From positions 25,236,001 through 25,300,000 of the forward strand of contig OZ076409.1 in the NCBI GenBank assembly GCA_964187785.1: a DNA stretch of 64,000 bases, read 5' to 3'. Position 1 is the first letter of the stretch; each line of letters begins with the position of its first letter. Under the pieces are notes generated by a model, which searched no databases, was not told where the DNA came from, and was given only the letters and a program-made list of their open reading frames with translations. Of the stretch, positions 1,261 to 57,595 are shown piece after piece. Position numbers and translations under genes: made by a program. Origin of the DNA: Amphiscolops sp. MND2022 (taxonomy: Eukaryota).

Positions 1261-1783
1261 CTGCAAAAATATTATCAATCAATCGATCAAGACAATCAAT
1301 CAAAATAGCCCAAAAAGAGTCAAACTTCAATATAGCTGAAAATCAACGGGACTTTTAACTGATCCACAGAAAATCAGGTTCAATGAGTTCAATCCAGCTT
1401 TGTTTAATTTTCGATATTTATTTTTTACTGAACATTTTGTTAGTTATTCGGTACAAAACTGGAAACTAAAATTTACAAGTTAATCATTATTAATCAGAAA
1501 AGTAGCGCAATAGGTAACTTACAAAGTAGTTTTTAGTGACAACTTTTTTGGATTGTTGGTATAAAATTGGCCATTTCCTGCCGAGCGAGCAATTTCCCTA
1601 ATTGACAAAGAGCTTTTACGGACATTATTACTGAAAACTCGGTGAATAGTGACAATTTAGACTTTTTGAAGGTAAATATCAAATGATTCAGTGAATTGCA
1701 CAGTCTGGAGATGAGATCAACCGGGTTCAATCTGAGTTTCCATGGAATTTTTCTCTAAATACAGGGAAGAGAGTCAAACTAAC

Positions 1784-2748: not shown

Positions 2749-2914
2749 CTAGAACAACAATAAAAGTAGAGCATGACAGACAAACACTTCATGGCAATGA
2801 AAAAATCATCTTTAATATCTTTAAAGTTTGCAGTAGATGCCAATCTTAGCAGCCAAAATGCTAATTTCGAAAACTCACAAAACCGCGGATAAGCAAAATC
2901 GCCACCTTTTACTA

Positions 2915-3272
2915 CAGGGTCTTTCAGAAATTTTGTGTCGAAACTATCTTCAAACTGTGAGAAATTGTTCAAATTTAAGAAAAACAATGGAACTTTTGAT
3001 GTTTTTTGTTTCGCTCAATTTTGTAGAGTGGAAATTTCAATTTTTCACACTTTTGCGGCCATGAACCAACTTGCTGAATATTTGGAAGCGAATTCAGCTG
3101 CGTGAAGATCAGAATGGAGGTCATTTCCAGCAGCTAATGTAGAATGAACTTTTAATGTATCAAAACAAAAGTTCCATATACTGTTCAAAATCTGTTAAAA
3201 ACTAGTTACGTCATGAATAGTAGTTATTAAGATTTTCGAAATTGAAGTTGACATAATTTCTGAAAGACCCTG
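2915..3272. mobile_element. Tc1/mariner-like MITE in laminin intron
   Basis: TA|CAGGGTCTTTCAGAAAT ... ATTTCTGAAAGACCCTG|TA terminal inverted repeats with TA duplication. Confidence 0.75.
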
Positions 3273-3789
3273 TAGTTTTTCATAGTTGCCAGCAACTTTC
3301 ATTATTATTTTCTACAAAATTTTCATGCAAAAATACTTTCCTGTTGTATTCGACGTTCATCAATCTTGCTTGAAATCTTCAAAAAATGGGCCGCAATTTC
3401 AATCCGCGAAGTCTTGCAGTTTTATTATGTATGCATGTTTAATTATTGAATGCAGTTGAAAACTTTTCAAAATTGCCACCATTTTATTGCAAAGTAACTT
3501 CAGTCACGTTCTGAACTACTAATTAGTGCCATCTTTCAGCGTTCTATTGGAAAAGCGGTGATTAAATCAGATGAGTAGTTCAAAGTCAAAGTGTGAAAAC
3601 AACGTGATCGTGTCGGTGACAAAGCGGAAAAACTTTTCAATTCCCATTTCAATAGTGAAAACTGCAGTGTAACCCAGAAGATGTACCGCCTGAATCTTAC
3701 AGAATTCTCAAGATTTCATAGAATATTGCCCTGCATGCAGGCCTGCAGCATTTAAAAAGTTCCAGCAGTGTCGACTATGGAATATAAGG

Positions 3790-4267
3790 GTTTAGTATCA
3801 TTTCACCCCACGTTCATTTCATCCCACATTCATTTCACCCAAATTCATTCACCCCACATTTAAATTATTGCCACACAATTTCAATCTAATAGAAAAGCGT
3901 CTTGAATCTAATTACCAATTAGATAAGCAAACTATGCTGGCTATGTGAACCACAAAATCGGAACCGAAATGTTTGACTTGTCGGAATTGTAATACTTCTG
4001 AACAAGGCGCTGAAAAAATCTTTTTCTTTCTGTCAATCAAAATCTTCAACTATATATGCTGCGAATCTTCAGCAAAAAATTTCCTATTACGTTTTCCTAC
4101 GGCAAAAAATTTCCTGGAGGACAGAAACCTCAAAGCTAACTCAAAGAGAGTAGGCATCAAAGTTTAATTGTTAATAGGCTAATTAACGTGAGTCGCTTTT
4201 GTATAAATACAATATGGTGTGAAATGAATGTGGGGTGAAATGAACGTGGAGTGAAATGATACTGAAC
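3790..4267. mobile_element. MITE with ~60 bp TIRs built from CATTTCACCCCAC-like subrepeats
   Basis: gtttagtatcatttcaccccacgttcatttc... mirrors ...gaaatgaacgtggagtgaaatgatactgaac; no clear TSD. Confidence 0.65.
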
Positions 4268-4662
4268 AGACATCAGCTACTTAAGTAGACGAATCAGGTG
4301 CTTGGTTACCGAGAGACAAAATGGTAGTCGCACATGCATAAAACGACCGCCATGATTCATTTTTCAGCCTACACAGAAAAAAATTATTATTAAATATCTC
4401 GGTTAGATCATAATGGAAAGTATGGACAAAAAGTTGAAGAAACGACCCGAAGCCTTAAATATCTGGAATTAGACCTTTCTAAACTTGATGAATTTGACAC
4501 AGCGTCAAGGTAAGATCAATAAAACTTTCATACCATTTCACAGACCTGGAACTTTGCAATAATACCAATCTAAACATCTCTACTGCAAATAAATCAGTGA
4601 TAACAAAATCCGTTCACATATTTCATTGAGCTGAAAGAAATGCTCTACGTTTTGAGACTTAC

Positions 4663-5063
4663 CCTCCAAACCAAGGATCCCGGTTAAAGACTGAGTAGCA
4701 CGAAGCACTGTAGTACTGCATAGGAGCCCAGTCTTCGTCAGACGAATTTCTGCCCAGAATAACCATACTATGCGGTCTCGGCGATTGGAAAGTCAATGAT
4801 ATCTTTCCTATCTCTGTCATGACACCCAGATCAATGGTAACATTGACCTCCATGTCAACTGTTGATGTATACCTGTTTGTGACGGCATTTTTGCCATCTG
4901 CAGACCCACTGACCCAAAAGGTCAGGTCATCTTTGTCAACAGCCGAGGTCACAGGGTGAAGTGGGACATCAGAGCTGACGGTACAGTCTTCAGACGAAGT
5001 TGAAACTTTTCCTGTTTCAGTGGTTGTATATCGTAGGAATTGAGTATCACAGGTAGAAGAAGC
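4663..5063 (-). CDS. Laminin gamma-like chain, exon 3 (LN domain)
   Basis: ccttag acceptor; ASSTC...VNVTIDLG...FQSPRP.SM.I...W.PMQYYSASC motifs; GTAAGT donor, phase 2. Confidence 0.92.
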
Positions 5064-5592: not shown

Positions 5593-6274
5593 GACATGAA
5601 AGCATCTGAAAAGGAGATCAAGTCAAATAGATATTGACCATGAATTTGATTTATCGACGTCGATCATTGATAGACCTTAAGTTACTGAGACCATAAATTA
5701 TGTAGTGAATATCATTTTAGATGAATACCCCTTAATTCTTCTAATAATTATTTCATCTGAAGTATAGTACCTAAAGAATTCATCAACTTTGCAGAATTAT
5801 GAAGTTTTTAGTTTGCTAATTCAATTATCACTGGGAAATTGCTTCCGGCGTCGCAAAAAACCCTCTGAAGCTAAGTTATATTACAGCAACTGGAAACATC
5901 CAAAGAAGCTTTTCAAAAAAAAATCAAATTATATAAATTTCAAGAAATGAATTTTTTCCGAGCTCAGGCAGTCCCAAGGTAGCTGAACTAGTCGACAAGC
6001 TCCAAATCTATTAGTGTCGACATCTGGTAGTGCAGTTGCTGAGCCAGAACATCGATCGCAGACATAAGTTCTCATTCGTGAAAGACTACCCGAGGCCACG
6101 GTACATCGTTTTTGAACCCGAGGGAGCTTCTAAATGAATGCCGACCCAGAAAGACTATTTCCAAAAAAACAATGAACTACTTTTCGTCGTTTTTTCATCA
6201 GAACTGTGACACATCTATATTGCATAGGCAAATGGACAGGATTTCTAAAAATCCTCAGAGAAAATGTTAACTGG

Positions 6275-7072
6275 AACAAGCCGGGACCGGCCCAAGTCGG
6301 CGCCCTATCTAAGGCTCAAAAATAGCAAAAGGACTTCAAAGTGTCAAAGTATTCTCTTCTAAAGCACCCCAAAAACTCAAAAATTGGACCGGATTGGGGC
6401 GCCAGGGGAACGCTTTGACATTTTTTATCCCTTCTGTCGCAAATCATCAAAAAAATTGAAGGGGGACCCTTTGGTGAAAAACAAAATTGAACAAAAGTCT
6501 TAATTCCGAAAAAAAACTGAAAGGGGGGCCTTTTGGTATTTTTCAACATCCATTCTGCCGCAAAACTCCAGAAAAAATGAAGACGGAACCTTTACGGAAA
6601 GTTTTTTTGTCTAAAAAGTCGCACTATGTCGAAATAATGAAAAAAACATATTGAAAATAATTTTACCGATTTTTTTAAAAATTTATTTTTTGAAGTCTCC
6701 GGTAAGTCGCCTAGTGCCAAAAATGTAAAAGAGGGGGCCCTTTGGGATTTTTTGAAGGTCCATTCTGTTGCAAAATATCAAAAAAATTGAAGGGAGGACC
6801 CTTTGGAGACAATAAAAAAATTTGCGAAAAAGAGTCTCACAAAGCCGAAATAACATGCACAAAAAATTTGGTCAAGGGTGAAACGTCCTTCTGCTTAGCA
6901 GACATCAAAAACTATCCTAATTAACCTCTATGCTAAGCGGCAGTAGAAGTTAAAAGTGTGGCAGTTGGTGGACGCAGCTTATAAAGCTTAAGAAATCTGT
7001 CACTTCGTTGGTCTTAAAAAAGAAATGTCACAGCTATAGTCTGCGTTTTCTACGAAAAGCGCCGACTAAAAA
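6275..7072 (-). mobile_element. Helentron-associated non-autonomous element (HINE/DINE-1-like)
   Basis: Subterminal inverted repeats AGTCGGCGC/GCGCCGACT, terminal hairpin plus CTTGTT end, T-rich flanks, internal AAAGGGG-ACCCTTT palindromic units; the family recurs throughout the window. Confidence 0.65.
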
Positions 7073-9295: not shown

Positions 9296-10556
9296 ATCTT
9301 TACCTAAGCATCAACTAAACGGAAATTTTGACCGATAACCACATTAATGACTCGAAATGTAGTTTTTCAGAGGTGTCCATACAAAACATCGTACAAACGA
9401 ATTTGAACAAATGCATATGTACATACAGCTCATTGATGTAACTGAACGCTGAACCAACTCCTTTAAACAATAATCTTCAATGATTCTATATAAAAAATAC
9501 GATATTCCCCCCGATTTTGAAAACTGACTTTCTCGAAAGTTTAGTAATTCTTAAAAAACTATTTAGCAACCCGGAGATTTCAAAGGTATCCAGAGCAGGA
9601 ACTACTTGACTAGGATTGCAGAGAATCTTAGTGAAATTTCTTTTATGTCCAGTAATTCGCAGAAAAAATAACAATTCAATTAGCAACAATTTTGAGCTTA
9701 CAATTTTTCTAAGTTTTGGAGTTGATTTTACGCCCTTTTCACGCTGTCTCTCTCAGGGCCTATTTTTTGCGAGCCTTGAGCTAGACACATTTGCGCCTGT
9801 TTACATTTTTACTTTTCCAGCATGCGCTCCCCCAACTTGCTTGTTGCAGTGTGGCTTGTTTGTGGAAACAAGACGCCCATTGAGCACCGAATATTTTCTG
9901 CCCTGAGTTATTTTTAGCAAAAACATAGAATAAAGGCTTGTACATGTCTCCTCAAAAATGATGCAGGCGAAACGTTCAAACTTGCATAAAAGTTCACAAC
10001 TTGAAGGGAAAATAATGTTGGAACATCTTTTATTTCAGGCAGTTGTTCTTCAAAACGTTTTTCTACAAATTAATATGCGGCGTAACTAATTTTATCGTCG
10101 TCCAATTCTTTGGAAGCATCTATTTTTAACGGGTAAAAATAGGAGATTAGAGTCTGGCTCCAAAATTCGATTAAAAAATATAACGCCTATGTTCGGTTCC
10201 TCACAGCTTTCATGACATTGTTTGAAACAGCACAAGTTTGGTATCATTTATTATTTACTATTTTTCTCACTTCTGTCCATACCAAGTACCCATGGAAGCA
10301 AATTTTATGTTATACTTACCAACTAAGCAAATTACATTAGTACCAATGGTTTTTGACCGAAATTATTATTCAAGCCGGTAGGTTAGTAGAAGGCACAATC
10401 ATATTTTACTGTTAGTAGAGAAAACCAATACTTTCACTTTTTCAGCACTAACTTTATTATTGCTTTAGCTACCTGTCTACGCACGTGAATCAAGAATTCT
10501 CAGTAGCTAAAACAATTAAATTCAAAAAAACAATATACACAACACAAATTCAACCA

Positions 10557-11297
10557 TCAAAAACTAATACTACAATGTTTATCAAACAATGATACAAGTC
10601 TGCTTCTGCCCTCATTGGTCATAGTGTTACCAGACACATCAACTTTTTCAACATTTTTACAAAATTCGTCATTAGCGGATAACATATGAGTCACGGAATC
10701 ATTCAACGAGCATCTAGCTAAATTGACAACTTTCAACTTATTACAAAAAGAAAACAAATTTCGCACAAAACTAAGAGTAGGGCCCGACATGAAATTATCA
10801 CTGAGGCTCAAAAACTGCAAGCTAGAATACAGAAAGGGGTTTGAAGTTGATACACGGAGACATTCATTCACTATTCGTTTAAGACAATGCACGTCCATGC
10901 GATTCTTAGTTAGCTTCACTTCTTTGAGAAGCGGGCATGTAGCCAAAATGTTTCCAAGAGCGTTGAAATGATCATCGGTCATGTGGATTCTTGTGAACGC
11001 CAGCTGCTTAATGTTACGATATAACGATGCTTCGATTATGGACAACATCATTTCGGGGTTGTGATACTGAAAAGCGCCCAAAATTTCGTACTTGCTCTGC
11101 TCACAGTCTTGTACAATTTGCAGCGCATAGTCACAGATTTCAACTGAGTCGTTTCTCCTGTGACACAAATCTTTGAACTCGTCCATAATTCCTTGTTTTA
11201 GTTGCCAACCAATCACAATACAGAATAGTTCCTTCTTGCCCAAAATCTTCTCATTCAGAACTGAGTCTTTGGAGAGTGAAGCGAGATCGAGACTTTT
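10557..11297 (-). CDS. TONSL: Tonsoku-like protein, full-length terminal exon (end of UBL domain plus LRRs)
   Basis: ttgttcgtgttgcag acceptor in phase 0 matches the donor at 15765; LxxLxLxxN repeats (EVKLTKN, FLSLSDN, VVNLARC, VDVSGN); TGA stop; AATAAA on the minus strand near 10452-10457. Confidence 0.85.
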   Translation of the reverse strand, partial: KSLDLASLSKDSVLNEKILGKKELFCIVIGWQLKQGIMDEFKDLCHRRNDSVEICDYALQIVQDCEQSKYEILGAFQYHNPEMMLSIIEASLYRNIKQLAFTRIHMTDDHFNALGNILATCPLLKEVKLTKNRMDVHCLKRIVNECLRVSTSNPFLYSSLQFLSLSDNFMSGPTLSFVRNLFSFCNKLKVVNLARCSLNDSVTHMLSANDEFCKNVEKVDVSGNTMTNEGRSRLVSLFDKHCSISF

Positions 11298-14264
11298 CTG
11301 CAACACGAACAATTTCATAGAAAAGCGGTAAAGTTATGGCGCTTGATTCATTTTGAAGAAATTAATTTCTGATTCTTGATGAGAAAAAATTCAGTGAGGG
11401 CAAAAATACTACGTCATTATTTGCAGCGAAGGGCCGATTTAATGATAGACACAATACAGAGGAGTCTTAACAAGAGGGTCTTTACATTCACTATGCTTAT
11501 ACATAGACAGATACGATTAAGATGACATCTGAGGGGGTCGACAGTTTTGGCCCTGCGAAGTTACACGGGACCACGGGCAAATGAGCAAACCATATGTATT
11601 TCAACTCAAAAAATGAAATAACATTGAAGATTTTGGGTTGCAGTACTAGAAAACAATATAATTCATCAACTTTAATCAAATTTTTAGTCGGCGCCTTTTC
11701 CTCTAAGGAAAAAAGCCCGACTATTACAGTGGGTAGATTTTTAGTCAGCGCCTTTTCCTTTAACAACTAGAAATTGAACTCACCATAAACTCTCATAAAC
11801 AGCTGGAATTTATCTTTCCACAGTAGGGTGTCGAAAAACTTAGTTTTGACCATATCAAAAGACTTTTGTTTCCAACTTGTTAAGGAAAAAAGCCCGACTA
11901 TTACAGTGGGTAGTTTTTTTAGTCGGCGCTTTTCTAGTGAAAAGTGCTCGACTCTTACAGTGGCTAGTTTTTTAGTCGGCGCATTTTCCTTTAAGGAAAA
12001 AAGCCCGACTATTACAGTGGCTAGTTTTTTTTTCTTTTTTTTTCGTCAGACCACAGAGCTCATCGCGTATGTACCACTTTTTACAGAAACTGATAAGTTC
12101 ACTCAGGCCACTTCGACCAATGCAAACTTACTGCAAAGGGTCCCCCCTTTCGTTTTTTACCTTTTTTACGTAACCTACAAAACCGGAAGACTCCAAAGGG
12201 TCCCCCCTTTCAATTTTTTTTCGGCACTGTGCGAATTTTTTTTTCGAAAATTTTTAATTTTTCAAAAGAGTCCCCCCTTCGGATTTTCTGATATTTTGCA
12301 ACAAAAAGTATGTTAATGAATCCCAAAGGGTCCCCCCTTTTCATTTTTTGGCACTATGCGACGTTTTCGAAGTTTTTTCAAAAAAAATTTCAAAAAAAAA
12401 TTTTTCAAACATTTTTTTTTCAAAATTTTTTTTGTTTCCAGTCGAGTCGGGAAAAGTGATTTTCCAGTCATATCGAGCATGAAAGGCACACTTTGGGTGT
12501 CTCGAAAGTGTTTTCAAAGCTTTTCATGAATACATCCTGGGCATATTTAGAAAACTCATGCACGTCAATGCACGTTAGTCAATATTTAGACAATGCACGT
12601 CCATGCGATTCTTAGTTAGCTTCACTTCTTTGAGAAGCGGGCATGTAGCCAAAATGTTTCCAAGAGCGTTGAAATGATCATCGGTCATGTGGATTCTTGT
12701 GAACGCCAGCTGCTTAATGTTACGATATAACGATGCTTCGATTATGGACAACATCATTTCGGGGTTGTGATACTGAAAAGCGCCCAAAATTTCGTACTTG
12801 CTCTGCTCACAGTCTTGTACAATTTGCAGCGCATAGTCACAGATTTCAACTGAGTCGTTTCTCCTGTGACACAAATCTTTGAACTCGTCCATAATTCCTT
12901 GTTTTAGTTGCCAACCAATCACAATACAGAATAGTTCCTTCTTGCCCAAAATCTTCTCATTCAGAACTGAGTCTTTGGAGAGTGAAGCGAGATCGAGACT
13001 TTTCTGCAACACGAACAATTTCATAGAAAAGCGGTAAAGTTATGGCGCTTGATTCATTTTGAAGAAATTAATTTCTGATTCTTGATGAGAAAAAATTCAG
13101 TGAGGGCAAAAATACTACGTCATTATTTGCAGCGAAGGGCCGATTTAATGATAGACACAATACAGAGGAGTCTTAACAAGAGGGTCTTTACATTCACTAT
13201 GCTTATACATAGACAGATACGATTAAGATGACATCTGAGGGGGTCGACAGTTTTGGCCCTGCGAAGTTACACGGGACCACGGGCAAATGAGCAAACCATA
13301 TGTATTTCAACTCAAAAAATGAAATAACATTGAAGATTTTGGGTTGCAGTACTAGAAAACAATATAATTCATCAACTTTAATCAAATTTTTAGTCGGCGC
13401 CTTTTCCTCTAAGGAAAAAAGCCCGACTATTACAGTGGGTAGATTTTTAGTCAGCGCCTTTTCCTTTAACAACTAGAAATTGAACTCACCATAAACTCTC
13501 ATAAACAGCTGGAATTTATCTTTCCACAGTAGGGTGTCGAAAAACTTAGTTTTGACCATATCAAAAGACTTTTGTTTCCAACTTGTTAAGGAAAAAAGCC
13601 CGACTATTACAGTGGGTAGTTTTTTTAGTCGGCGCTTTTCTAGTGAAAAGTGCTCGACTCTTACAGTGGCTAGTTTTTTAGTCGGCGCATTTTCCTTTAA
13701 GGAAAAAAGCCCGACTATTACAGTGGCTAGTTTTTTTTTCTTTTTTTTTCGTCAGACCACAGAGCTCATCGCGTATGTACCACTTTTTACAGAAACTGAT
13801 AAGTTCACTCAGGCCACTTCGACCAATGCAAACTTACTGCAAAGGGTCCCCCCTTTCGTTTTTTACCTTTTTTACGTAACCTACAAAACCGGAAGACTCC
13901 AAAGGGTCCCCCCTTTCAATTTTTTTTCAGCACTGTGCGAATTTTTTTTTCGAAAATTTTTAATTTTTCAAAAGAGTCCCCCCTTCGGATTTTCTGATAT
14001 TTTGCAACAAAAAGTATGTTAATGAATCCCAAAGGGTCCCCCCTTTTCATTTTTTGGCACTATGCGACGTTTTCGAAGTTTTTTCAAAAAAAATTTCAAA
14101 AAAAAAATTTTTCAAAAAATTTTTTTTCAAATTTTTTTTTGTTTCCAGTCGAGTCGGGAAAAGTGATTTTCCAGTCATATCGAGCATGAAAGGCACACTT
14201 TGGGTGTCTCGAAAGTGTTTTCAAAGCTTTTCATGAATACATCCTGGGCATATTTAGAAAACTC
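10882..14264. repeat. Near-identical tandem duplication, period ~1706 bp (10882-12557 / 12588-14264) with a 30-bp junction insert
   Basis: Direct sequence comparison; the ORF track shows identical ORF pairs offset by 1706. Confidence 0.95.
12575..13003 (-). CDS. TONSL: Truncated duplicate of the TONSL terminal exon (stops after DVHCLNID)
   Basis: Essentially identical to 10882-11297 including the acceptor; the stop codon is created by junction sequence. Confidence 0.7.
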   Translation of the reverse strand, partial: KSLDLASLSKDSVLNEKILGKKELFCIVIGWQLKQGIMDEFKDLCHRRNDSVEICDYALQIVQDCEQSKYEILGAFQYHNPEMMLSIIEASLYRNIKQLAFTRIHMTDDHFNALGNILATCPLLKEVKLTKNRMDVHCLNID

Positions 14265-14745
14265 TGAGCTTTTTGAGCCTTAGATATAGCGCCGACTTTA
14301 GACGTTCCCGTCTTGTTCTTTTTTTCGTCAGACCACAGACCTCATCGCGTATGTACCACTTTTTACAGAAACTGATAAAAGTACTCAGGCCAAGTCCGGC
14401 CAATGCAGACTTAGTGCAAAGGGTCCCCCTTTCATTTTTAACCTTTTTTACGTAACCTACAAAACCAGAAGAGGCTAAAGGGTCCCCCATTTCAATTTTT
14501 CGGCACTGTGCGACTTTTTTCGAAAATTTTTTAATGTCTCAAAAGAGTCCCCCTTTCAGGTTTTTTAATATTTTGCAACAGAATATATGTTAATAAAGCC
14601 CAAAGGGTCCCCCTTTTACATTTTTCGGCACTATGCGACATTTTTTGAGAGAAAAAAATCAAAAAGTTCAAGTTTTTTTTAAAAAAGTCTTTAGCGCTTT
14701 TTGAGCCTTAGGTATAGCGCCGACTTCAGACGTTCCCGTCTTGTT
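13386..14745 (+). repeat. Cluster of HINE-family copies in the TONSL intron (mirrored at 11680-12557)
   Basis: Repeated TTTAGTCGGCGC..CCCGACTATTACAGTG 5' ends; GCGCCGACTT-AGACGTTCCCGTCT-TGTT 3' ends finishing at ~14317 and ~14745. Confidence 0.7.
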
Positions 14746-15364
14746 TCAGCTTAAAATCTCACTCTGACTGGACCACTTTTCTTTCAATTCTTACAATCTT
14801 ACCATTCTCACTTAGCTTACGAAGTAGTATTTTTACCCTAGTTGGAACTCCTTGAACTTTTTACATGTTTTTGTAGGTTACCAAGCTAATTTTCCATGAT
14901 TTTATAAAATTCTCAAAGAAATGTCCATGCATTAAATCTTCATTGATTCGATTTAACTTTATCAAGCTGCCTATAAAATGCACCTTAAATTTGGCGGCAA
15001 TTCTGCGCCGCGACGTTTTGCAAGTTTCATAAAGACGCCGTTCTAATTTTGAAAGCAGCTGAGACCTTAATCAATTTTACCGCGCTTTCAATGCAAACAA
15101 ATTTCAGTCACCTTATAAGTTTCAAAGTAGCGTCATATTTGGCTAACGGTGATTACATAAGGCACTTACATGAGAAACTTACGCGTGAAAACAAAGTGAT
15201 CGCTGCGGTGAAGAAGTGGAAATGTTTTCAGTTTTAATTCAAATAGTAGAAGCTGCATTGTAATCCTACAAAATGTTTCCATGCACGGTACCGGAATTTT
15301 CCATGTTTTATAAAAAATTAGCCTGCATGTTTCCATGCAGCATGTAAAAAGTTCAAGCTATCTC

Positions 15365-15680
15365 GACTAGGGTACATCATCTGAGAAACTCAACGGGGGC
15401 AAAGGGTACTCCCTTAGAGTATTTTTGACTCTGAGTCTTTTTTTTTCGAAAACAAAAATTTCACCAAAGGGTTCCTCCTTCAATTTTTTGATATTTTCCG
15501 ACAGAATGGATGTTGAAAAATCCCAAAGGGTCCCTCCTTTCAGTTTTTCTCGGCATTGTGAGACTTTCAATTTTTTTCATAAAAGGGCCCCCAATTCACC
15601 AATACTTTGACATTTTGAACACCTTCTGCTATTGTTGAGCCTTAGATATGGCGCCAACTTGGGCCGTTCTCGGCTTGTCT
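15365..15680 (+). repeat. Partial HINE-family copy
   Basis: AAAGGGTCCCTCCTTT units and 3' end GCGCCAACTTGGGCCGTTCTCGGCTTGT. Confidence 0.6.
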
Positions 15681-15765
15681 TTTTTATCCAGGAAGACAGA
15701 TTAAATTCTCTAATCCCAAAGTAAACAAATCTGACAATATTAAAGTTCGAATATCGATATCTTAC

Positions 15766-18700
15766 CCCTCGAAACTTGACATCAAGAAGTGGGACCAAGT
15801 CAAATTTCTGTTTGAAATTGGAGCGTTCCAAAATTTGAAGAACTGTTTCATTCCCATCTTTGACATTTACGTTTGCAGTGAAAATGGTTTCCATTGTTCG
15901 ATTGGTGATGTAGCGAATATTCACATCAATAGCTTTATAAGGCAGGATAGGAGCAATTCCTTGAAATAATGGTCGATTTGAAATACATTTAACAGATTCT
16001 GAAGAATTGGATATGAAAGTAGAGCACAAGGGGTGATTGTCCAGTTCTAAACTAAGAATATCATCTGCATCTTTTTGGTTCAAGTCGGCAACTTTAGAAG
16101 ATTGTTGGATAGATAAAACGTCAGAAACATAAGTCGGAATGTCAATGCAAGGCTTAGCGACCTCTAGCTTTGTACTTGTAGCCGCTGATTTGTTTCCAAT
16201 TTCAGGAGATAAGGTCAAAGACTCATTTTCCGACAAATCATTATTTGATTGACTGCTTTCGTCTTTCTCGGGAGACGAGAACTTTTGCAATTCGATTATA
16301 TTAGGTTTATCAACAACGAGAGTACGAGAATGGTCAATTACAGAGCTTCTATCACATATCTCCTCTGATTTTTTCGGCGATACTGGCCGTTGTCTTTTCT
16401 CAGGTGTGACCTCTTGAGATCTTCGTTTGCAAGGATTTGTCGGTATATTTTCCTTTTCTGAATCAGACGAGCTGCTGTCGTCAATAACAACTCTTTTCGA
16501 CAATCTTTTATCTTTTGTAATTTTTTCTTTAATCTTTGTAGGCTCATTGAGACAGCCAGACTCGGATTTCTTAGATTTCAAGCTGACTGAGGATTCCGTT
16601 GTACTACAAATTCCGGAATCAGCAATACTTCCAGATTTTCGGCTGGAAAAACTGCGAACTTCTTGCAGCCACGAAGCTTCATTGGTATCTTTCAAAGTGT
16701 CGTTCGTTTTGGTTTCATTGCCACTAACTGTGACGTCTTTTTCACGACGACGCTCTTTTATCCGATCTGATCGTTTGATATCATCGGCCGTTCTACTTCT
16801 ATATAAGGCATTTCTTCGACTTTGGCATCTTAGAGCGTCTTCGTACATATCCATTGCAGTTCCTGGTTCGTTAGTAACAGTGACGCTATCAGTCTGTTCT
16901 GTACGAAGCAATTCAGAAGGTGGATCATACACAGCGTCATCATCTTCATCACTACTTCCGCCAGAAACAACTTCCGGGCATTGAGCTTCCCTGTTAGACA
17001 ACAAATGAGCATCCAAAACTTTCGTATTTGCTTTGGCTTCCGCAACACATTTAGGTCTTGGAATTTTGCTCAACATGGATTTGATCTCCTCAATAATTTT
17101 CCATTCCTCTGCAGTTGTATTATCTTCACCGTATTGCTTGTCAAGGAGCTCATAAAAAGTATCGGCTGCACATATGCCAATTTTACCTGGAAAATATGGA
17201 TAAGCTCCATTTTCTAACAGAACCTTAGCACATTCAAACTGGTGGCTTTGCATGGCGTCCATCAAAGGTGTCAAACCTGTTTGGGCCATGACACTGTCTA
17301 CCTTGGCGCCGTTTTCAACTAGAAGTTTACAAATCTCCACATGTCCGTGATTTGCTGCTTCATGTAGAGGAGTCCAGCAGTTGTTGTCCCTCACGTTAAC
17401 GCTGTATCCTTGATTAATGAGACTGCGCACAACAGAATACTTGCCTTCGATTACAGCAACCTGCAGTTTTGTTTCGCCTTTTGCGTTTCTTCTCTGCTTG
17501 TTCAACGGAACTTTGCGTTTCTTCTCAGTTTCCGAATCTGAGCTAGAACTTCCGATCTCTTCTAGGAGAGCATCATCATTGTCATCCGCATAATCCGAAT
17601 CTGCCGATAAGTAACCATGTTCTTGCTCTCGTAATCGAGAAGCAAGAGCATTGCATTTGGCCAAACTCGTCTCACTTTCTGCATACTTATGAGCCTTGTC
17701 CATGTAAAGCTCAGCGTTGCTTTTGTCAGAGAGATTGTGATAGCATTTGGATATGTGTCGGGCAATTCGGCTCATTTTTTCATCTTTTTCTTCTATTTCC
17801 ACGCCATTTCTTCTTAAGAGTTTAAGCAATTCCAAATAAATTTCAACAGCATGAGAGAAAAGATTCGAGTCACACAAATTGAGACAAATGGACAATTTCA
17901 AGTCATAAACTTTCTGTCCGAATGTATTACCCTGCTTGTCCAAGAGCCTGAGAACAGCTTCGTAACATTCATTCGACAATTTGTAAGACTGGACCTGGCA
18001 ATAAGTATCACCCAGTTGCTCAATTGTGTCGATATTTCCAGAAAGTTCTAAATCATCATCCAACTTGCTTCTCAGTAATTTACACAACTTCAGTCTCCGC
18101 CCAAGTTTGAGAGCATTTTCTGATAACTCAAATTTTGTAGCATTTTTCATCTTTTTGGCAAGTTTTATATGCGTGTAAGCATCATCGGTATTACTATTCA
18201 TACAGTGATATCTGGCAATATGGTAGTAGCAATTGAACTTTTCTTCCAAGCTGTCTTTGTTCTTTTCAATGATATTCAAATATTTTTTGGCATACTCCAA
18301 ACACAGATCATATTCTTTCCTCTTCTCATATAATGCTTGGGCATCACAGTACAGGAGTAACAAAATGTCTTGAAGATCGCGACTTTGCCGAGCTAATTCG
18401 ATTCCTAAGTTCAAATAGTGAAATGCTGTTTCAAGCTGATCAGTGTTACAAAAGAATTGGGCCATATTTTGAAATAGACTGGCTTTCTTTCGCGGTACTT
18501 CTAAATCACTGGAACAGTCTTTGGAAGCCTTTTTTATATCGTTTAATGTTTTCTCGCTTCCTAAAAACATTTTCTCAGCGTTTGTCAAGTAATTCTTTTT
18601 CTCAGAAGAAGTCAAATTCTCCCCGTCGGCGAGATACATGAAAGCTCGTGCCTGATTCAAGTATGCTTGTTGTAAGTGAGGTAACAATTTGAAGTCTTTA

Positions 18701-19005
18701 GACAATGAAAGATACTTTTCTGCCTTCACAGATGCATCAGTAACATAATCAAGCTCTATCAAGCAGTCTATTGACCTGCGCAAACCATCCAAGTAAGTTT
18801 CACGTTGACTTTGCGTATCAAGCTCCCGGTCAGTGCAAAGCGTTACTATTTCCTCGAATTTCTTGAGAGCATCGTCATAATTTTCTTCCCTGAACAAAAA
18901 TTCTCCCATTTCGAACAATATATCCAACACTTTTTGGAAATAACAATGTGCTCGAGCTTTACTAAGGTCTTGCTGCATAGCCTTGAAAAGTTTTCGATCT
19001 CCCAT
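15766..19005 (-). CDS. TONSL: Tonsoku-like protein, main exon (1080 codons: TPRs, acidic linker, 3 ankyrin repeats, Ser-rich linker, start of UBL)
   Basis: N-terminal TPR helices; RRNAKGETKL...RDNNCWTPLHEAANHGH...TPLMDA ankyrin block retaining the acidic/aromatic residues typical of the TONSL/BARD1 H4K20me0 reader; GTAAGA donor at 15765; with the LRR exon the architecture is diagnostic (1326 aa if spliced to 11297). Confidence 0.88.
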
Positions 19006-19149
19006 TTCATCTGAAAAAGAGGTTATATTGCGACCGGGGTGATTATATAGAGGACCACCGGATTAACGATAGAATCAACAAAGATCTTAGGGTTACCCCT
19101 TCAAACTCCAGTTTCGAAATTGATATGATTTTATTTTTAGTTTTCATGT

Positions 19150-19497
19150 GTGTGGGCGGAAATAGGTCGAAGGAACGGGATCGAAAATCAGTTAGTCCTC
19201 AGGTCGACATACCAAAATTTTTGAATGGGATCGAAACAACTCGGATCGAAAATTTTATAACGTAGTCAGATATGTTCACATACCCCTAGTGCCCTGAATG
19301 CAGGAGCGAAGCGAAGAGGAGCGACGTGCCATATGGCCATGCCTCAATGTTGCTACTTGGCGAAGGGAGCGAAGCGACCGAGCCATACATCAAATACGAT
19401 AAAATTCGACCGCACTCCATTCGATCCCTGCAATACGATCAAAAATTTCGACCTCTGTCCTTTCGACCAGAAAAATTCGACCTATTTACAGCCACTC
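19150..19497 (+). mobile_element. Mutator-like MITE (~350 bp), copy 1
   Basis: TIRs G(T/G)GTGG..GAAATAGGTCGAA / TTCGACCTATTT..CCAC(T/C)C; 9-bp TSD TTTTCATGT at 19141-19149 and 19498-19506. Confidence 0.85.
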
Positions 19498-19950
19498 TTT
19501 TCATGTCTTGCAGTCTTCGCACACCAGCATCTACAACTACTTAAAAAACAGAAGTTAGCCGGGAGTACGAGCAAAGGATGGTGGACAGTAACAGACTCTG
19601 AAGTAATCTTTTCCCGTCAACAAAAGCATGCGCCGGAGATCTCTCGGGGCCAAAAGACTAAAGGATCGCCGAAATTTAAACAACGACAAAGCGAAATATT
19701 TTTCGTTCGAAGATTTAGATTTTGGTGATCCGCAAATAGTTTGGCATATTCTTTTTCTGACTGAAAACATTTCAAAACCCACATTGTGAATGAGGAAAAA
19801 AATCAAAAAGTTGCGATTTTCGGTGCCTATTCATACAGCAGAAAATGAAAATTTGGTCCCATACAGCCGAATTCAAATTACTAGCTTTTAGTGCTGTTAC
19901 AGCCAATATGTTGGAACTTGATTTATTTAAAAAGGTTTGAATATTTGTTG

Positions 19951-20083
19951 TATGGCTCGGTCGCTTCGCTCCCTTCGCCAAGTAGCAACATTGAGGCATG
20001 GCCATATGGCACGTCGCTCCGCTTCGCTTCGCTCCTGCATTTAGGGCACTAGGGGTATGTGAACATAGCTAACTACGTTATAA
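19951..20083 (-). repeat. Solo ~133 bp GAGCGAAGCG-containing module, also nested inside the Mutator-like MITE
   Basis: Reverse complement of 19256-19388 without the MITE arms. Confidence 0.8.
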
Positions 20084-21191
20084 TAATAATTCCGACAAAA
20101 TCTGACACGCGTTTTCAGCTTAGTGAATTCAATTCGATTTCAAATTTCAGCCAATCAGATTGCAACATAAAGAAATATTCTGCTGTTTGAGACCAATTTT
20201 TCATTTTCTGCTGTTTGGTACTTCGGCTGTTTGGGAATTCCCCCGATTTTCCAATGAAACTTGCGCAATATCAATAGCAACAGGTCATATCGCGAGTAGT
20301 TTGGTTATAAAGCGGTGGGTCCCCACGCCAGGGGGGGGGTGTCCAAAAAAATTTCGACCCAAGGCAAGTTCCGCAAGAATAAATGAGTCACACACTTACT
20401 CCCAAAAATTTCTGAAATCCGGAAAAAAATACACCCCCCCCCTGATCATCACATGTAAAAATTCGAAAAACCGAAAAATTTTCGAAAAATACCTATAAAT
20501 AGTTTGAAACATCCGAAAAATTCAAGAAACGTGTTTCAAGCATCACATATATTTGAAAAAAATCAATGGAAAAGTTCCATTGCACATTTTGTCAGGTCAT
20601 GAAAAATTGGAAACCCATGGGAAAATAATTCCATGGTCAATACTTTTAGTATTTTGGATATTTCTCCACAGAGTTGGGAAAAGCTTAGATTAACTACTGA
20701 AAAAAAGTAAAACAAAATGGTACATCAGGAAAGACTATGTCAAAAGACCGCAAAAATTCCAGTGTCATTACATTGAAAACTAATAACTATTGAATCACTG
20801 GACGAAGTGATGCTGTGTTGCATTAGGCGGATTTTTATATGAAGGAAAACAGTCCTATACAGGAAAAAAAAGATGGCGCTCAAACAATTATCTTTACAAA
20901 GCTGACTTCACTAACATGGAGAAATGTTTTTAATAGTGGAAAACTCCTCAATTTTGGATATGCATTTCAATCTACGGATGAGCAAACATCAGACATACGG
21001 GAACCTTCTGAATTTCGTCTACAGCATTGAGTGTTTTCTATAGACCGCAAAAAAGTCTAAATATACCACCAAATGTGTTCAGTCAATTTCTACATGAAAC
21101 AATAATCGGCTATTCTAGGGACGTTCGCTATACCAGTGCAACGATTTACAAGTTATCATTATTTGAGTACGAAGCAACCATTACAAGGATT

Positions 21192-21441
21192 GGGTGAACG
21201 GAAATGGGTCGAAAGAAATGGGTCGAATCGGCCTCCTGTGCCATGGGTCGAATCTTCACCGTTTCGGAATTGGGTCGAATGGACTTGGGTCGACCTTGAA
21301 AAATGCCAAGTTCAAGGGAGACAACATATTGATTTCGACCCAAGTCCATTCAACCCCAGTCAATTCGACCTAAGTTATTCGACCAAAAGGGTCGACCTAA
21401 TTCTTTTCGACCTATTTCATTCGACCCATTTCATGCAATCC
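21192..21441. mobile_element. Second Mutator-like MITE family, inserted in the left Polinton arm
   Basis: GGGTGAA..GAAATGGGTCGAA / TTCGACCCATTTC..CAATCC TIRs; 9-bp TSD ACAAGGATT at 21183-21191 and 21442-21450. Confidence 0.8.
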
Positions 21442-22794
21442 ACAAGGATTTACGCGTTGCATTTATTTCAGTAGATAATTCTTTTTGTTGAGTGTACATC
21501 GGATATTTTTTTCATTGTAGCTTATCTTTCATACAAAATCAGGTTAAAATTTTGCGTCTTCAGGAGGAAGATTTTTACTCTTTCAAATCTATATTCAACT
21601 CCGTTTCTCTATCGATTATTTGACGAATGGAGCTCCATGTAGTGTTTTTAAGGTACTTTCAAGACAATTTCATTTCGGGACGTTGTTCCTGTTAATGTTA
21701 CAAGAGTGCCTATGAAACGATGCATCACTATCAGATTCAGTTCGACTACACAACCAAGTTTACTACTTTGCTCGAAAAGTGGAGCACGCTTAAGACAAAT
21801 AATCATAAAATTCATGTGGTGACCTGTTAGATCATTCACTTCAAGGGCAAAATATTATCATTGAAAATTATTTGAATCACAGATGTGTTTATTTTCAACA
21901 AGGTACGCACAAAATACACTGCACCAGACATAGTGAAGAACTAGTTCCAATTGAAAATTTTCGTATCGACAACACGAGTTTTCCAGACAGCACTAAATTC
22001 AATACATTTATTTACCCGGATGGAAATAAGTTTGATAAATCGAACAGCGATGGCTGAAAGTGGATACTAATTGAGGTTTATCAATTTAAACCCATGAAAT
22101 TCAGTTGTTTTGACACGAATATTGAGACGTTGAAATCAAACATGAATAAACTTGTTTAGAAACAATTCCTACCATTTATCTCAAATTGGAATCACTTAAA
22201 AATGGATTTCAGCAAAAATCACGTGATTGTTTTATTACATACGACATGCCAAATACGATATAATCCAGGTCTCAAGCTTCAAAGCCCAAGAAGAAAATGG
22301 ATATAATCATCGAGAATTAAATATACGAAAGCGGTAATAAATTGTAGACAAGATAACTACCAAACAAATACACTACACCATAAAAACAAATACACTACAC
22401 CATAAAACATAGTTAGGAAGTTGATTAGAATTAAACTTGGAATATGTTAACGAAACAAGGTTTCATAATACTCCACTGACAAGCAAAACTTTCATTCAGA
22501 TCTTATTGTAATATACTCTTTTGTAAACGTGGAGGTACTTTTACTAGAGCTAAGTCCTAAAAAGCACACGAAATACAATTGATAGCATTGACAGGACAGT
22601 AAATTTGAGTCCTTAAGTTTGAACGAAATAATCTTTGGAAACAACACCTCACGAACAGAAAACGAAGTAATACATTCCACAATCACAGAATACAAAGTTA
22701 ATAGTTTTTGTTGTTGAATTCAAGTCTACTGATTGTTTTAACATCACGCAATTTCAATGCAATGCTGTACTTGCAGAAGGAGCACCCTAGGTTC

Positions 22795-24403
22795 TCATAT
22801 ATCAAAGGATCTGTGTGGATTCCGTCTGAATGGAGTTTACGTTTCGGATAAAAGTATGATAAACCTCTCTTGGATTGTACGTAAGTATAAACAGCATGAT
22901 TTCGCACCCTGAACCCTCGATTGATTGATCTAAAATCTGAAACGTCATTCAAAACTTTTCTGTACTTCTGGAGAGGATCGTCTGATGACTCGCTCAAAAA
23001 GTGCTTGTTTAAACCCTTACTGCTGAACTTCGTTTTCTTCGTTTGTGAATCATAGCAACAATATGTTTTGCTACACAAGCAAATCATTTCTGTTGCATGG
23101 AATTGTTCCTTGAATAATCGAGGCTCTCGTTTGTCAAGCTGAGAGTGTGTGGAGCAACACCTTCGAGGAAAGAAGTTCCTCAAACTGTCTGCATCAAAGT
23201 AATTACGGAAGTCTTCTATTCTGATGGCTGACCACTCTCCGAGTTTATCTTTTCTGATGCAATCAGTAATGTCGTTCTCTGCTAAGGCTAAATAAAGAGA
23301 GTCAGTATCCATTTCCAATTCCTCGAACTTGCTTTCGTCACAGTACTGCTTGAAGAAATTATAATAAAGCTCCAACATTCTGAGCTTAGCATTTATTGTT
23401 TCTAAGGTTGCCCCTTGAATTCATTAACATCAACTTCACAGTGTTCCAGATATTGCTGGAAAAAATTCGCTGTTTGTTGCTCCAAATTCTGTCTGCCTGT
23501 GAGGTGAAATGCAACAGCTCTTAACAAGCACAAGTTGTTGTTGTAAGGTTTGTTCGAGGTTTTGGTAGATAGACAGAACATCTTCTTGGTTTTGAGGATA
23601 CGTGAGGGAATTTCCAGATTTTGACCACCTAATGGGATTTCTTTCAGAATTGCAGCAAAAACAGTCATATTTGTTGCAAAAGCAAATTTCCATTTTGTTT
23701 TAGGTCGCTCTCGTGTCGCTCTTTCAACGAAATCTTCCAGAGAAAGTTTTGCTATGACATTGTCAAGATATTTTTCATTACTCAAAAGTTGTGATGTATT
23801 GAAATTGAGTGAGTTTTCGTGAGCATAATAATAGCGGTAATAATCGCTTTCAATATTACGGAGGACAAAACCTAGGCTAATATTTATTTTGGCACTATTG
23901 TCAAGGTTGGCGAACACTAGTCGAAGTTTTTCAGCCATCACTGTTGGACTCAATTCCGTCAAAGCGAAGTTGAAAACATGCTGTTTTCCTCGTATTGATT
24001 CCGAATCAACAACAAAATGTTCAACATTGCGAAGCTCTTCCCGAAGTTGTTGATTCGCGTGATCCCCCATGATTGTGTCGAGGTCAACCTTTCCTGAAAG
24101 TGTAACATTCGACTGTGACCGACTACCATGGAGAGTTTGCTTAGGTTTGCGGAGAGCGTAGAAACTGTGGAATGTTAGCATACACTCAGTGCAAGTGAAT
24201 TTTCTTGTCAAGTATTCTTTGCGATGCTTTTCTGCTGTGTGGTTATCCAGTTCTTCCTTGGTCTTCGCTGTGAATTTTGGACATTTGGGACAGAATAGAT
24301 TTCCTCTCATGCACGACTTGTTGTGACGAGATGTATGCTTTTTGACAATTCTTTTTCCACATTTGCCACGTTCATTGGGTTTGTTTCAATCAAGAGCTGG
24401 CAT
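22795..24403 (-). pseudogene. Left-arm Polinton pPolB remnant (C2H2 N-terminus joined to C-terminal palm; ~2.6 kb internal deletion)
   Basis: MDTDSLY motif C, KxYC and KFSSKG motifs; junction near 23390 joins the equivalents of right-arm 28956 and 31544. Confidence 0.85.
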
Positions 24404-25439
24404 TTTATGGTCTAAAAGTAGTAATCTTCAACGTGAAAAAGAACTATTCAATTTGGAAAGTGTTCTTTCCGTGTAGTAAAATGGAAGTTGTCCAAAACGA
24501 TTCTAACTGATTATGCCGCGTTGAAATATGACTTCTGATTTAACGTCTAATTAAAAGAGGTTTCATCGCAGTAGCACAAAACATTTCCATATGTTTTACG
24601 ATCACGGAGGTGGCAGAACCCCAAAATTTTGTGTGTACTCGAAAGTGTTTTTTGGAAAAACAGTTTAATTTGTGATCGGTTTCGAACACAACAGTCTTTT
24701 CCTACAATACTAATCTTTGTTGACGTGAATTTGTCGAAACTTGTCTCACTATCTGGGATATAGACCATGAAAGCAAAAACAAAAAAAATTACAAAAATTT
24801 TTATACATTGATATCGAGAAATGGTTCGTAAAAACTGAACGCTAAATCGAACACTTGGAAAAATTGTATTTGTTTATTGTATTTTAGCGGTTATCTCACA
24901 ACGAGTTTTGTGGGTGTATTACACTCACTGTGGCATTAGAGGCTCTTTAGTTGAGTCGTGAGAGTAATCCTGAATCAATTGTTTTGCCGAAAGATCAAAC
25001 TTCAAAGCGAAAGCGGGGCAACGTAATTGCCATCCTTAATCACACCACAACAGAGTTCGCGATTGATTATGCGTGTGTTTAGTCAATGCCGCTCTTCAAG
25101 ATTTCATTTTGAGTCACCCACAAAAATTCATGATTGCTGTATCGAAACGGAAGAACTGGAGCGTGACGCTGAATAAGCATTCAAGTGGCATTCAATTATC
25201 TTATCCAGCAGTAGTCTTTGAAGTTTTCTTTAAATGTGTGTTGTCACAGATTTCGAATTTGAATCACCTGGACATATTTGGTAATTGTTATATACACTGA
25301 TTGACAAGAGCGTCATGCTGTATAGACCTGAAAGGGACGCCGACAGCTTGTTTTTGCTGATCCTGTTCACTTTCACGAAGCCCTTTTATTCTTTCAAGCG
25401 TTCAATTTTTGCGTCTTGCCAATCGAATCATGCGCATTT

Positions 25440-26040
25440 CGAGTAGTCTATGACTAATATACAAATAACAATTCCATGTTTGAAACTGAATGCCTTGTTT
25501 TAAAAAGTAAAACAATAGGTGGATTTTCCGAAAAAGAAAAATCCATATAGATTTCAACCAGATACGGGATTAATGACAGTTCTGAAAGAATTTTGTATTG
25601 AAATTCTCCCCTAGACATATGTAGAATGGAACTAAATGTCTCAGTATCCAGTAGACATGACAATGCAACACGAAGTAATAACGTTTGGATTATGTGAATC
25701 TGAAATGTTTGCTAAAGTTATGTAAAAAGTTTTCTCTGAAACTCATTCTTGGTGCCCAAACTATTTGACGAACATCTCGAGAGTAAGTGAGATATTTTTA
25801 AAAGCTACATGTTCTGTGGTCAACAAAATTATTGCATTGCCAAAAATTAAATTGAGCGTTCTTGTAGTCAGTTTTTTAGGCCATTTTCAGTTTTCTAACG
25901 ATTATATTCTAACCCGCGTTGATATATTTGAAATTGAGTCAGCATGATTTTTCTTGGAACATGTCTATAATGAAGTTGCTCGCATGTTTGATTCTTTCAT
26001 CATCAGTAGTGTTGTAGTAACGTTATCAGTCAATCACTGA
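25440..26040 (+). pseudogene. Decayed unknown Polinton ORF pointing toward the palindrome centre (mirror copy ~26309-26900, minus strand)
   Basis: One frame reads PDTGLMTVLKEFCIEILP*...NYLTNISRVSEIFLKATCSVVNK...FFLEHVYNEVAR with scattered stops; conserved in both arms. Confidence 0.4.
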
Positions 26041-57560: not shown

Positions 57561-57595
57561 AGGTAAATGATCTTTGATAGCTATATGGTGTCAAA

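Follow-up and report, generated by a model that had tools for sequence, protein, structure and literature searches.

Whether a gene that meets a truncated copy of its last exon before the full one has evolved an alternative last exon, or merely bears a structural variant, is the question raised by the DNA-repair gene TONSL of the marine acoel Amphiscolops sp. MND2022. The window, i.e. the whole stretch of DNA analyzed, spans 64,000 nt (assembly GCA_964187785.1, contig OZ076409.1, positions 25,236,001-25,300,000, forward strand). TONSL lies on its minus strand and consists of two exons, with a tandem duplication of 1,706-bp period within the gene.

The preliminary description had named the gene TONSL, an identification supported by domains, alignments and Atlas clusters. 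Exon 1 matched the domains TPR_12 and Ank_2 (1.2e-19), and the last exon, which has the RI-type leucine-rich repeat (LRR) fold, matched LRR_6. Residues 1-620 of exon 1 were 44% identical to P0003, whose cluster includes P0125, the RefSeq tonsoku-like protein XP_063723731.1 of Symsagittifera roscoffensis; the last exon was 42% identical to the C-terminus of P0125. The best five Atlas clusters for P0125 were all tonsoku-like (scores 0.98-0.99). With the TPR region as query, phmmer returned values below 1e-30 for only four proteins (P0001, P0003, P0004, P0131). Named vertebrate TONSL was absent from the 120 matches listed in one search and from the 60 listed in PDB searches with the ankyrin region, the best 60 matches listed there all being multi-repeat ankyrin proteins. 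The histone-reading ankyrin motif D-x-x-x-W-T-P-L-H-E-A-x-N was present, including the conserved Glu, and its other pocket residues presumably match the human numbering. Human E568 is the conserved Glu of this H4K20me0-reading motif (PMC13031629). A ubiquitin-like domain (UBL) probably precedes the LRR, as its position suggests; the segment is conserved with P0125, gave no Pfam UBL match, and in the Atlas retrieved only LRR clusters scoring below 0.9. Mammalian TONSL binds MMS22L via the LRR (PMC9409234), in agreement with the preliminary description.

Features of the gene and of the duplication are listed in Table 1. The sequence surrounding the two acceptors (AG ends at 13004 and 11298) was identical, with approximately 1,260 nt in common on the upstream side and 416 nt on the downstream side. 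According to conceptual translation, splicing to the distal acceptor would give a predicted protein of 1,326 aa, and splicing to the proximal one a predicted protein of 1,222 aa ending in DVHCLNID and a stop. These identical acceptors, opening a truncated and a full last exon, had been described before, and every coordinate and length was verified. The donor position was identical in P0001, P0002, P0003, and P0130, and intron position and phase are kept in relatives (S. roscoffensis P0125, QVKYQG/KALQ, vs. the unspliced ORF P0003, QVKYQG/VSYF). The truncated copy had also been said to lack a poly(A) signal. This stood insofar as the scanned interval, from the truncated stop up to the second acceptor, contained no AATAAA. 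Three ATTAAA do occur there, however (12258, 11676, and 11443), and the AATAAA at 10458 lies downstream on the same pre-mRNA, 2,116 nt past the truncated stop.

Table 1. Features of the acoel TONSL gene and its internal duplication (window coordinates; a slash marks the splice point)
Feature	Position	Strand	Details
TONSL exon 1, coding part	15766..19005	minus	1,080 codons, ATG at 19005
Exon 1 content			TPR region, ankyrin repeats (aa 514-602), low-complexity linker, start of probable ubiquitin-like domain
Codon 543, TGC (Cys)	17377..17379	minus	ankyrin motif D-N-N-C-W-T-P-L-H-E
Splice donor GT	15764..15765	minus	phase 0, context GGG/GTAAGA
First (proximal) acceptor AG	13004..13005	minus	intron 2,762 nt
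Second (distal) acceptor AG	11298..11299	minus	intron 4,468 nt
Truncated last-exon frame	12575..13003	minus	142 codons: 139 native, then NID and stop from junction insert
Full last exon	10557..11297	minus	246 codons; five ribonuclease-inhibitor-type leucine-rich repeats
Donor-like sites 3' of proximal acceptor	11778..11786 (best; GT at 11783); others 12131, 12160	minus	best ATG/GTGAGT; simple consensus match only
AATAAA, likely native poly(A) signal	10453..10458	minus	98 nt past full stop codon; motif only
Duplicated unit, upstream copy A	12588..14264	minus	1,261 nt intron, acceptor, 416 nt last exon
Junction insert	12558..12587	minus	30-nt patchwork templated by both breakpoints
Duplicated unit, downstream copy B	10882..12557	minus	1,260 nt intron, acceptor, first 416 nt of full exon

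Copies A and B were 99.6% identical over 1,680 columns, far beyond chance. Only five differences were found in 1,677 nt, all of them intronic, and the 416-nt exonic parts were identical. Because the copies differ at these five positions, the duplication appears young, yet not brand new. One of the differences is a clean non-homopolymer substitution. At 13929, a CG-to-CA change separates the copies, and G is found in eight of nine members of the local repeat family.

The junction insert points to the way in which the duplication arose. Three patches of 9, 10, and 9 nt, copied from sequence at most 25 nt from the two breakpoints, cover 24 of its 30 nt. Such coverage by matches of at least 8 nt to 40-nt flanks was reached by none of 18,861 random 30-mers of the window and by none of 18,861 shuffles, at settings picked after the junction was seen; in a looser test (6-nt matches, 400-nt pool) 152 of about 5,000 random 30-mers and 115 of 5,000 shuffles (2-3%) reached the observed value. 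Templated and patchwork inserts are reported as hallmarks of polymerase-theta end joining (TMEJ) at duplication and deletion junctions (PMC13031629, PMC8654963). The head-to-tail arrangement and the flank-templated insert would accordingly place this junction among TMEJ-type tandem duplications, as judged from sequence. A break end may have been extended by copying about 1.7 kb off the sister chromatid, after which the ends would have been sealed by polymerase-theta-type end joining following several aborted rounds of priming. The patchwork insert, which supplies the in-frame stop, would be a relic of this aborted priming.

A second allele, apparently intact, could be traced on another contig. 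The full last-exon ORF (P0122) was present on two contigs, the longest of 885,014 nt, and the truncated ORF (P0121) on one of 236,232 nt. Counterparts of exon 1, of a laminin exon, of both inverted-repeat ORFs, and of a 39.5-kb ORF were found on the 885,014-nt contig, which is syntenic. Since this contig encodes an identical full last-exon ORF and not the truncated one, as read from ORF and protein calls, the duplication looks haplotype-specific. Five of ten neighboring ORFs were in the protein collection; three of their five clusters included ORFs of the 885,014-nt contig, and the other two were a singleton and a repeat family of 181. That the copy on this contig is a paralogue rather than an allele was rejected, as the neighbors are shared. 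In the related species represented by P0172, the intact last exon was the only form found. A search of JGI metagenome contigs gave 231 pattern matches and no confirmed relative of the last exon. The truncated ORF, on one of the two full-ORF contigs, appears neither fixed in the species nor conserved in relatives, as would be seen for regulated alternative last exons.

The two haplotypes differed at seven of 1,071 aa in exon 1. At otherwise invariant columns, each carried one change: G543C on the duplication haplotype and D45E in P0001. The equivalent of residue 543 was Gly in the other haplotype and in all relatives (10 of 10 other acoel sequences holding the motif), and Cys at this Gly position occurred in none of 307 distinct ankyrin motifs (P0005-P0120). 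The change directly precedes the Trp of this histone-reading motif. Linked exon-1 variants of this kind would permit an allele-specific read-out. Pseudogenisation of the duplicated allele was rejected, since exon 1 showed no excess change.

Truncation drops 107 aa and three of the five LRRs, 139 codons being retained. The five repeats are recognizable both as motifs and as predicted strands. In a predicted model the product ends within the helix of the second of five repeats, without a cap; AlphaFold confidence for the last exon was poor from the single sequence (pLDDT 39) and only moderate for a three-row model (57, with 70-86 in the C-terminal repeats). One donor would now face two identical acceptors. 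The proximal acceptor probably serves a substantial fraction of transcripts, because it is made 1.7 kb earlier and is followed by 416 nt of native exon. Such transcripts would encode a TONSL lacking three of five LRRs, and would either carry a 3'UTR of 2.1 kb with the native poly(A) signal at its end or undergo a further splice past the stop, either of which would likely lower the yield of mRNA or protein. The other transcripts would skip to the distal acceptor and encode the full-length protein. Given these two outcomes of competing acceptors, we infer a leaky reduced-function allele, probably recessive and tolerated because intact alleles exist. The reading of a young, haplotype-specific duplication of polymerase-theta-type origin with such an effect is the one we consider reasonably probable, and a structural variant is the best reading of the locus rather than an evolved alternative last exon. 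The preliminary description had offered a hypomorph or a new LRR-short isoform. The former is most likely, and it gains strength from the absence of the duplication in the protein calls of the syntenic contig. The latter is weakly supported: the duplication is young and on one haplotype, its product ends uncapped in the second of five repeats, and the relative's last exon is intact.

Against this reading, the junction is known from one assembled contig and the splice forms are predictions; it also has rivals. The duplication may be real yet nearly silent, the proximal copy being skipped as 1.7 kb of extra intron, if the distal exon is defined jointly with the poly(A) signal and the proximal one lacks both a native donor and a near AATAAA. 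Terminal splicing is coupled to polyadenylation, and the AATAAA lies 839 nt from the distal vs. 2,545 nt from the proximal acceptor, which could favor the distal exon and thus speaks against reduced function, as does the absence of excess decay in exon 1 of the duplication haplotype, where both exon 1 and the last exon are still open. On the other hand, the acceptors share their flanks and the proximal one is transcribed first; in classic tests of duplicated acceptors, the proximal site was reportedly favored when its exon flank was long, although our literature search on such competition found no paper testing proximal preference. We regard near silence as unlikely, if worth keeping in view. 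Still less weight attaches to an artefact of assembly or library, whether from a chimeric read, from a chimera formed during amplification, or from two haplotypes strung together, which we consider quite improbable. In its favor, the junction comes from one contig, the copies of a neighboring duplication are 100% identical, and at an allelic intron divergence of 0.5% five or fewer differences are expected 40% of the time. Against it, this probability falls to 0.014 at 1% and to 1e-6 at 2%, and between allelic proteins 4 of 337 and 10 of 207 residues are changed. Moreover, the multi-patch templated insert had no second occurrence within the 64-kb window, the copies differ by a clean substitution outside homopolymers, and the identities of three duplications in the window are graded.

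A stable LRR-short TONSL with an effect of its own, dominant-negative or as a regulatory isoform, is quite improbable. Retaining TPR, ankyrin repeats, and UBL, it could bind chromatin, dimerise with full-length TONSL, and fail to bring MMS22L; the truncated frame is open to its stop with three ATTAAA beyond, and human TONSL without the LRR is reported to co-precipitate full-length TONSL via the UBL (PMC13418528). Yet it would arise from one haplotype only, two repeats without a cap would, judging by the model, probably fold poorly, G543C sits beside the histone-reading Trp, and neither Pfam nor the Atlas confirmed the acoel UBL.

The TONSL duplication is one of three kb-scale tandem duplications in the window, with periods of 1,706, 1,458, and 1,299 bp. 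Together they cover 8,907 of 64,000 nt; their identities are graded, at 100, 99.6 (the TONSL duplication), and 98.8%. The two neighboring ones show 3- and 5-nt microhomology at their junctions, and the junctions of all three appear TMEJ-compatible. None of ten short ORFs within the TONSL duplication or spanning the other two junctions was in the protein collection. Loss of TONSL is reported to give TMEJ-joined duplications in worm and plant, of 5 kb-1 Mb (medians of about 25 and 300 kb for C. elegans and of about 200 kb for Arabidopsis; PMC13031629). The junction signature is the same, and the gene struck here is itself a suppressor of such events. A feedback, in which weakened TONSL in the lineage causes the duplications of the window including its own, might thus be imagined, and their density would fit. 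However, periods of 1.3-1.7 kb fall short of this size class, for which the 64-kb window is too short; the acoel duplication lies outside it, and an origin through TONSL loss was rejected for this mismatch. Those events arose in homozygous mutants, and tnsl-1 heterozygotes are treated as proficient in the relevant part of PMC13031629, whereas an intact allele exists here; the 98.8% duplication also looks older than that in TONSL. We hold this feedback to be extremely unlikely. A different proposal, that the lineage makes 1-2-kb TMEJ-joined duplications at a high rate through loss or weakening of a second-end annealing factor, like C. elegans without HELQ, and that the LRR-short protein poisons dimers with intact TONSL, is improbable but better placed. 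None of the papers listed in a literature search linked acoels to TONSL, to polymerase theta, or to HELQ or BRCA1.

Three known systems resemble the acoel allele. (i) TMEJ tandem duplications in C. elegans helq-1 mutants range from 100 bp to 10 kb (median about 1 kb), into which 1.7 kb fits, and likewise carry templated insertions; a patchwork with one stretch copied twice, as here, is shown at deletion junctions (PMC8654963). The acoel insert, at 30 nt, is longer than the insert class of 1-20 bp defined in PMC13031629. (ii) The mutually exclusive terminal exons of Drosophila pip arose by tandem duplication, likewise of an intron end and last exon, giving two acceptors per donor (PMC9013439). 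(iii) Human TONSL alleles in SPONASTRIME dysplasia are recessive and of reduced function, as proposed here, with variants in the ankyrin and LRR regions (PMC13418528). Unlike these, the acoel case is known from sequence alone: it is a natural variant rather than a mutant line; its upstream copy is, in contrast to pip, incomplete, without its own 3'UTR, identical in the exon part, and confined to one haplotype; and it is a structural variant in an invertebrate, unlike the SPONASTRIME alleles.

Beyond the preliminary description, the analysis adds the templated junction, the second allele, and Gly543Cys, as well as the five intronic differences and the loss of three of five LRRs. For now, the duplication is a single structural variant, of a kind already known and seen on one haplotype. 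Its value lies mainly in being a clean, naturally occurring polymerase-theta-type scar and in setting two identical acceptors in competition for the same donor. It would matter more if RNA showed the truncated exon to be heavily used, since the allele would then be a naturally occurring TONSL hypomorph in an animal that regenerates and is rich in stem cells. Three kb-scale TMEJ-compatible duplications in 64 kb are a more interesting lead than the TONSL allele, and would matter more if a similar density were found across the genome and proved to go along with the loss of a repair factor. If the lineage does form such duplications at a high rate, acoel haplotypes would offer a natural animal model of the tandem-duplicator state and of the birth of alternative last exons, with the TONSL allele as a product caught soon after birth.

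TONSL is encoded by two exons on the minus strand. A tandem duplication (period 1,706 bp) spans the boundary between its intron and last exon, repeating the final 1.26 kb of the former together with the initial 416 nt of the latter. Splicing into the proximal acceptor (13004) is predicted to yield a protein of 1,222 aa with the C-terminus DVHCLNID, and use of the distal acceptor (11298) one of 1,326 aa. The exonic portions of upstream copy A and downstream copy B are identical and give the two forms 139 codons in common; NID and the stop of the truncated form are encoded by the insert between the copies, and 107 aa are missing. Re-derivation of coordinates and splice products reproduced all numbers of the preliminary description. 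Its statement that the truncated copy lacks the native poly(A) signal was borne out in part: the stretch from the truncated stop to the distal acceptor contains three ATTAAA but no AATAAA, and the same pre-mRNA still includes the AATAAA that is probably the native signal (10458), 98 nt past the full stop and 2,116 nt past the truncated one.

Coordinates of the TONSL duplication and of decayed retroelement frames in the window
Feature	Position	Strand	Remark
TONSL exon 1	ATG 19005 to phase-0 donor 15765	minus	1,080 codons
Duplication copy A	12588-14264	minus	
Duplication copy B	10882-12557	minus	
Insert separating copies A and B			30 nt
Reverse transcriptase	55099-56211		decayed retroelement frame
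Aspartyl protease	60716-61828		decayed retroelement frame
PHD-finger ORF	62517-63305		in 181-member cluster

The TONSL intron (11680-15690) consists of dispersed repeats of one family, in which ~125-130-bp units (GGGGGACCCTTT motif) occur alongside 55-bp units; further members lie at 6250-6860 and 35200-37150. At 19005-19020, a pyrimidine-rich acceptor-like site (TCTTTTTCAG) immediately precedes an out-of-frame ATG (19010). The upstream frame that this ATG starts has 54 codons and overlaps the start of TONSL; the acceptor-like site may belong to an intron of the 5′UTR or else serve in trans-splicing.

Exon 1 matched TPR and ankyrin repeats in Pfam, and the last exon gave weak LRR matches. Four proteins matched over the whole query (99, 77, 44, and 46% identity). 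The cluster of the 44% match includes RefSeq XP_063723731.1 (P0125), the tonsoku-like protein of the acoel Symsagittifera roscoffensis, whose best five Atlas clusters were all tonsoku-like (0.98-0.99). Because the last exon also aligns with the P0125 C-terminus (42% identity), and intron position and phase are the same as in relatives' TONSL, the gene is in all likelihood the TONSL of an acoel related to, yet distinct from, S. roscoffensis. Two results temper this picture: a search with the TPR region returned no strong non-acoel match (four proteins below 1e-30), acoel TONSL seeming strongly diverged, and a ubiquitin-like domain was not confirmed by Pfam and Atlas searches. The full last-exon ORF (P0122) contains five LRR motifs, starting at residues 103, 131, 167, 195, and 223. 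A three-row structure model of moderate quality (mean pLDDT 57) placed strands at these motifs and a helix at 143-159, and resembled ribonuclease-inhibitor-type LRRs (best E 3.5e-6). According to this model, truncation at residue 146 would fall within the helix and remove repeats 3-5 and the cap. Judging by the C-termini of P0122 and P0125, acoel TONSL appears to carry five LRRs, against seven in human TONSL. In mammals, the C-terminal LRR region mediates the complex with MMS22L (excerpt of PMC9409234).

By exact look-up, the full last-exon ORF was found on two contigs, of which the longest measures 885,014 nt. The truncated ORF (P0121) was found on one contig, 236,232 nt long, on which the exon-1 ORF of the window lies as well. 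The cluster of both last-exon ORFs had no further member, homologue searches returned no additional truncated form, and the last exon is intact in a related species (P0172, 77%). The 885,014-nt contig carries near-identical counterparts of (i) exon 1 (seven differences in 1,071 aa); (ii) the laminin exon (4/337); (iii) the ORF at 39.5 kb (10/207); and (iv) both inverted-repeat ORFs, so that it represents an allelic version of the region, one that by its ORF calls seems to lack the duplication. On the same strand, TONSL is followed downstream by the exons of this laminin-type gene (laminin EGF domains; 863-5063, allelic to P0149).

The two haplotypes also differ in exon 1. Codon 543 (17377-17379) is TGC within the ankyrin motif D-N-N-C-W-T-P-L-H-E on this haplotype only; all ten other acoel sequences holding the motif have Gly, and among 307 distinct ankyrin motifs of P0005-P0120 the position is Gly in 202 and never Cys. 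Cys543 adjoins the motif Trp, which we take to map to the human histone-binding pocket, and the same motif carries the conserved Glu that corresponds to human E568. Human TONSL requires E568 for H4K20me0 binding (excerpt of PMC13031629). Gly543Cys may reflect relaxed selection, a reading tempered by a likewise single change at an invariant column on the other haplotype (D45E, P0001) and by an unremarkable total of changes, the related species' two sequences differing at 16 of 1,131 positions.

Two further kb-scale tandem duplications were detected. One (44441-47359; period 1,458 bp), whose copies are 100% identical and whose junction shows 3-nt microhomology, is either very recent or an assembly artefact, and is nested inside an older 88% duplication (41496-44572/46047-49164). 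The other (32366-34970; period 1,299 bp, 98.8% identical, 5-nt microhomology) has inverted 95-96% copies of its unit at 20295-23390. Together with the TONSL duplication they span 8,907 of 64,000 nt, an uncalibrated density that serves as a lead. An inverted duplication of 2.6 kb at 23389-28956 (23389-25992/26357-28956, 96%) contains frame-broken ORFs with no Pfam match, and is older than the allele split because each copy is matched by a counterpart on the 885,014-nt contig; the adjoining ORF 22698-23420, which had no database match, gives only the impression of being polymerase-like. Dispersed elements of 140-350 bp with inverted arms, possibly MITEs, occur at 19142-20087 (arms 19255-19396/19942-20083, 96%), 36705-37057, and 57104-57447. 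Decayed retroelement frames occupy 55099-63305.

On the transcribed strand, both breakpoints have contributed pieces to the insert. The first piece, which begins inside the final three bases of copy A, matches the start of copy B over 9 nt; it is followed by 10-nt and 9-nt copies of one stretch just ahead of the copy A end, with 5-nt matches filling between. Every 12-mer of the insert is unique to it within the window. Matches of at least 8 nt to the 40-nt flanks cover 24 of its 30 bases, a value reached by 0/18,861 random window 30-mers and 0/18,861 shuffles, under settings picked after a looser statistic had been computed (equalled by 152 of ~5,000 random 30-mers and 115 of 5,000 shuffles); the weakest of twelve settings gave 123/18,856 and 30/18,856, respectively. 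The scar points to a polymerase-theta-type enzyme, and a break was most likely extended by ~1.7 kb of copying and then closed by theta-type joining.

Five of 1,677 positions distinguish copies A and B, and none of them is exonic: an isolated CG-to-CA change at 13929, where eight of nine local repeat family members have G, and four within a run of homopolymers. An artefact is improbable overall. Were allelic introns to diverge by 1 or 2%, two haplotypes set in tandem would be expected to show many more differences (P of at most five = 0.014 and 1e-6, respectively); at 0.5% the test is uninformative (P = 0.40). TONSL suppresses theta-joined tandem duplications, and worms that lose it acquire duplications of ~25 and 300 kb, Arabidopsis plants duplications of ~200 kb (excerpt of PMC13031629). 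The 1.7-kb acoel event differs in size and is not a member of this class, which makes a TONSL-driven feedback as the source of the duplications the least credible of the readings; the acoel event fits the size range in helq-1 worms (100 bp-10 kb, median about 1 kb; excerpt of PMC8654963). The type of event, a TMEJ-type (polymerase-theta end joining) duplication damaging a gene and creating competing last exons, is well known. In mostly open-access literature, no such allele was described, either among papers listed for TONSL and tandem duplications or among those listed for acoels in combination with TONSL, polymerase theta, HELQ or BRCA1.

The donor would now face two acceptors that share their branch and pyrimidine context and are each followed by the same 416 bases; transcription reaches the proximal acceptor 1.7 kb earlier. 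In tests of duplicated acceptors, the proximal site is preferred; polyadenylation aids terminal splicing. A nearly silent allele would be favoured by the shorter distance of the poly(A) signal from the distal acceptor (839 nt, versus 2,545 nt from the proximal one), but is unlikely given that the proximal acceptor is made first in the same flanking context. Proximal products could (i) carry a 2.1-kb 3′UTR that extends to the native signal; (ii) end at an ATTAAA; or (iii) undergo a second splice into the distal acceptor from a donor-like site (12160, 12131 or 11783), placing a junction 414-791 nt past the stop that would invite nonsense-mediated decay. Human LRR-less TONSL still dimerises with the full-length protein (excerpt of PMC13418528), as a stable LRR-short isoform with its own action might; we consider such an isoform rather improbable. 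The safest expectation from the splice-site arrangement is that both acceptors would be used, giving a mixture of products, and the duplication has probably turned TONSL on this haplotype into a leaky allele of reduced function.
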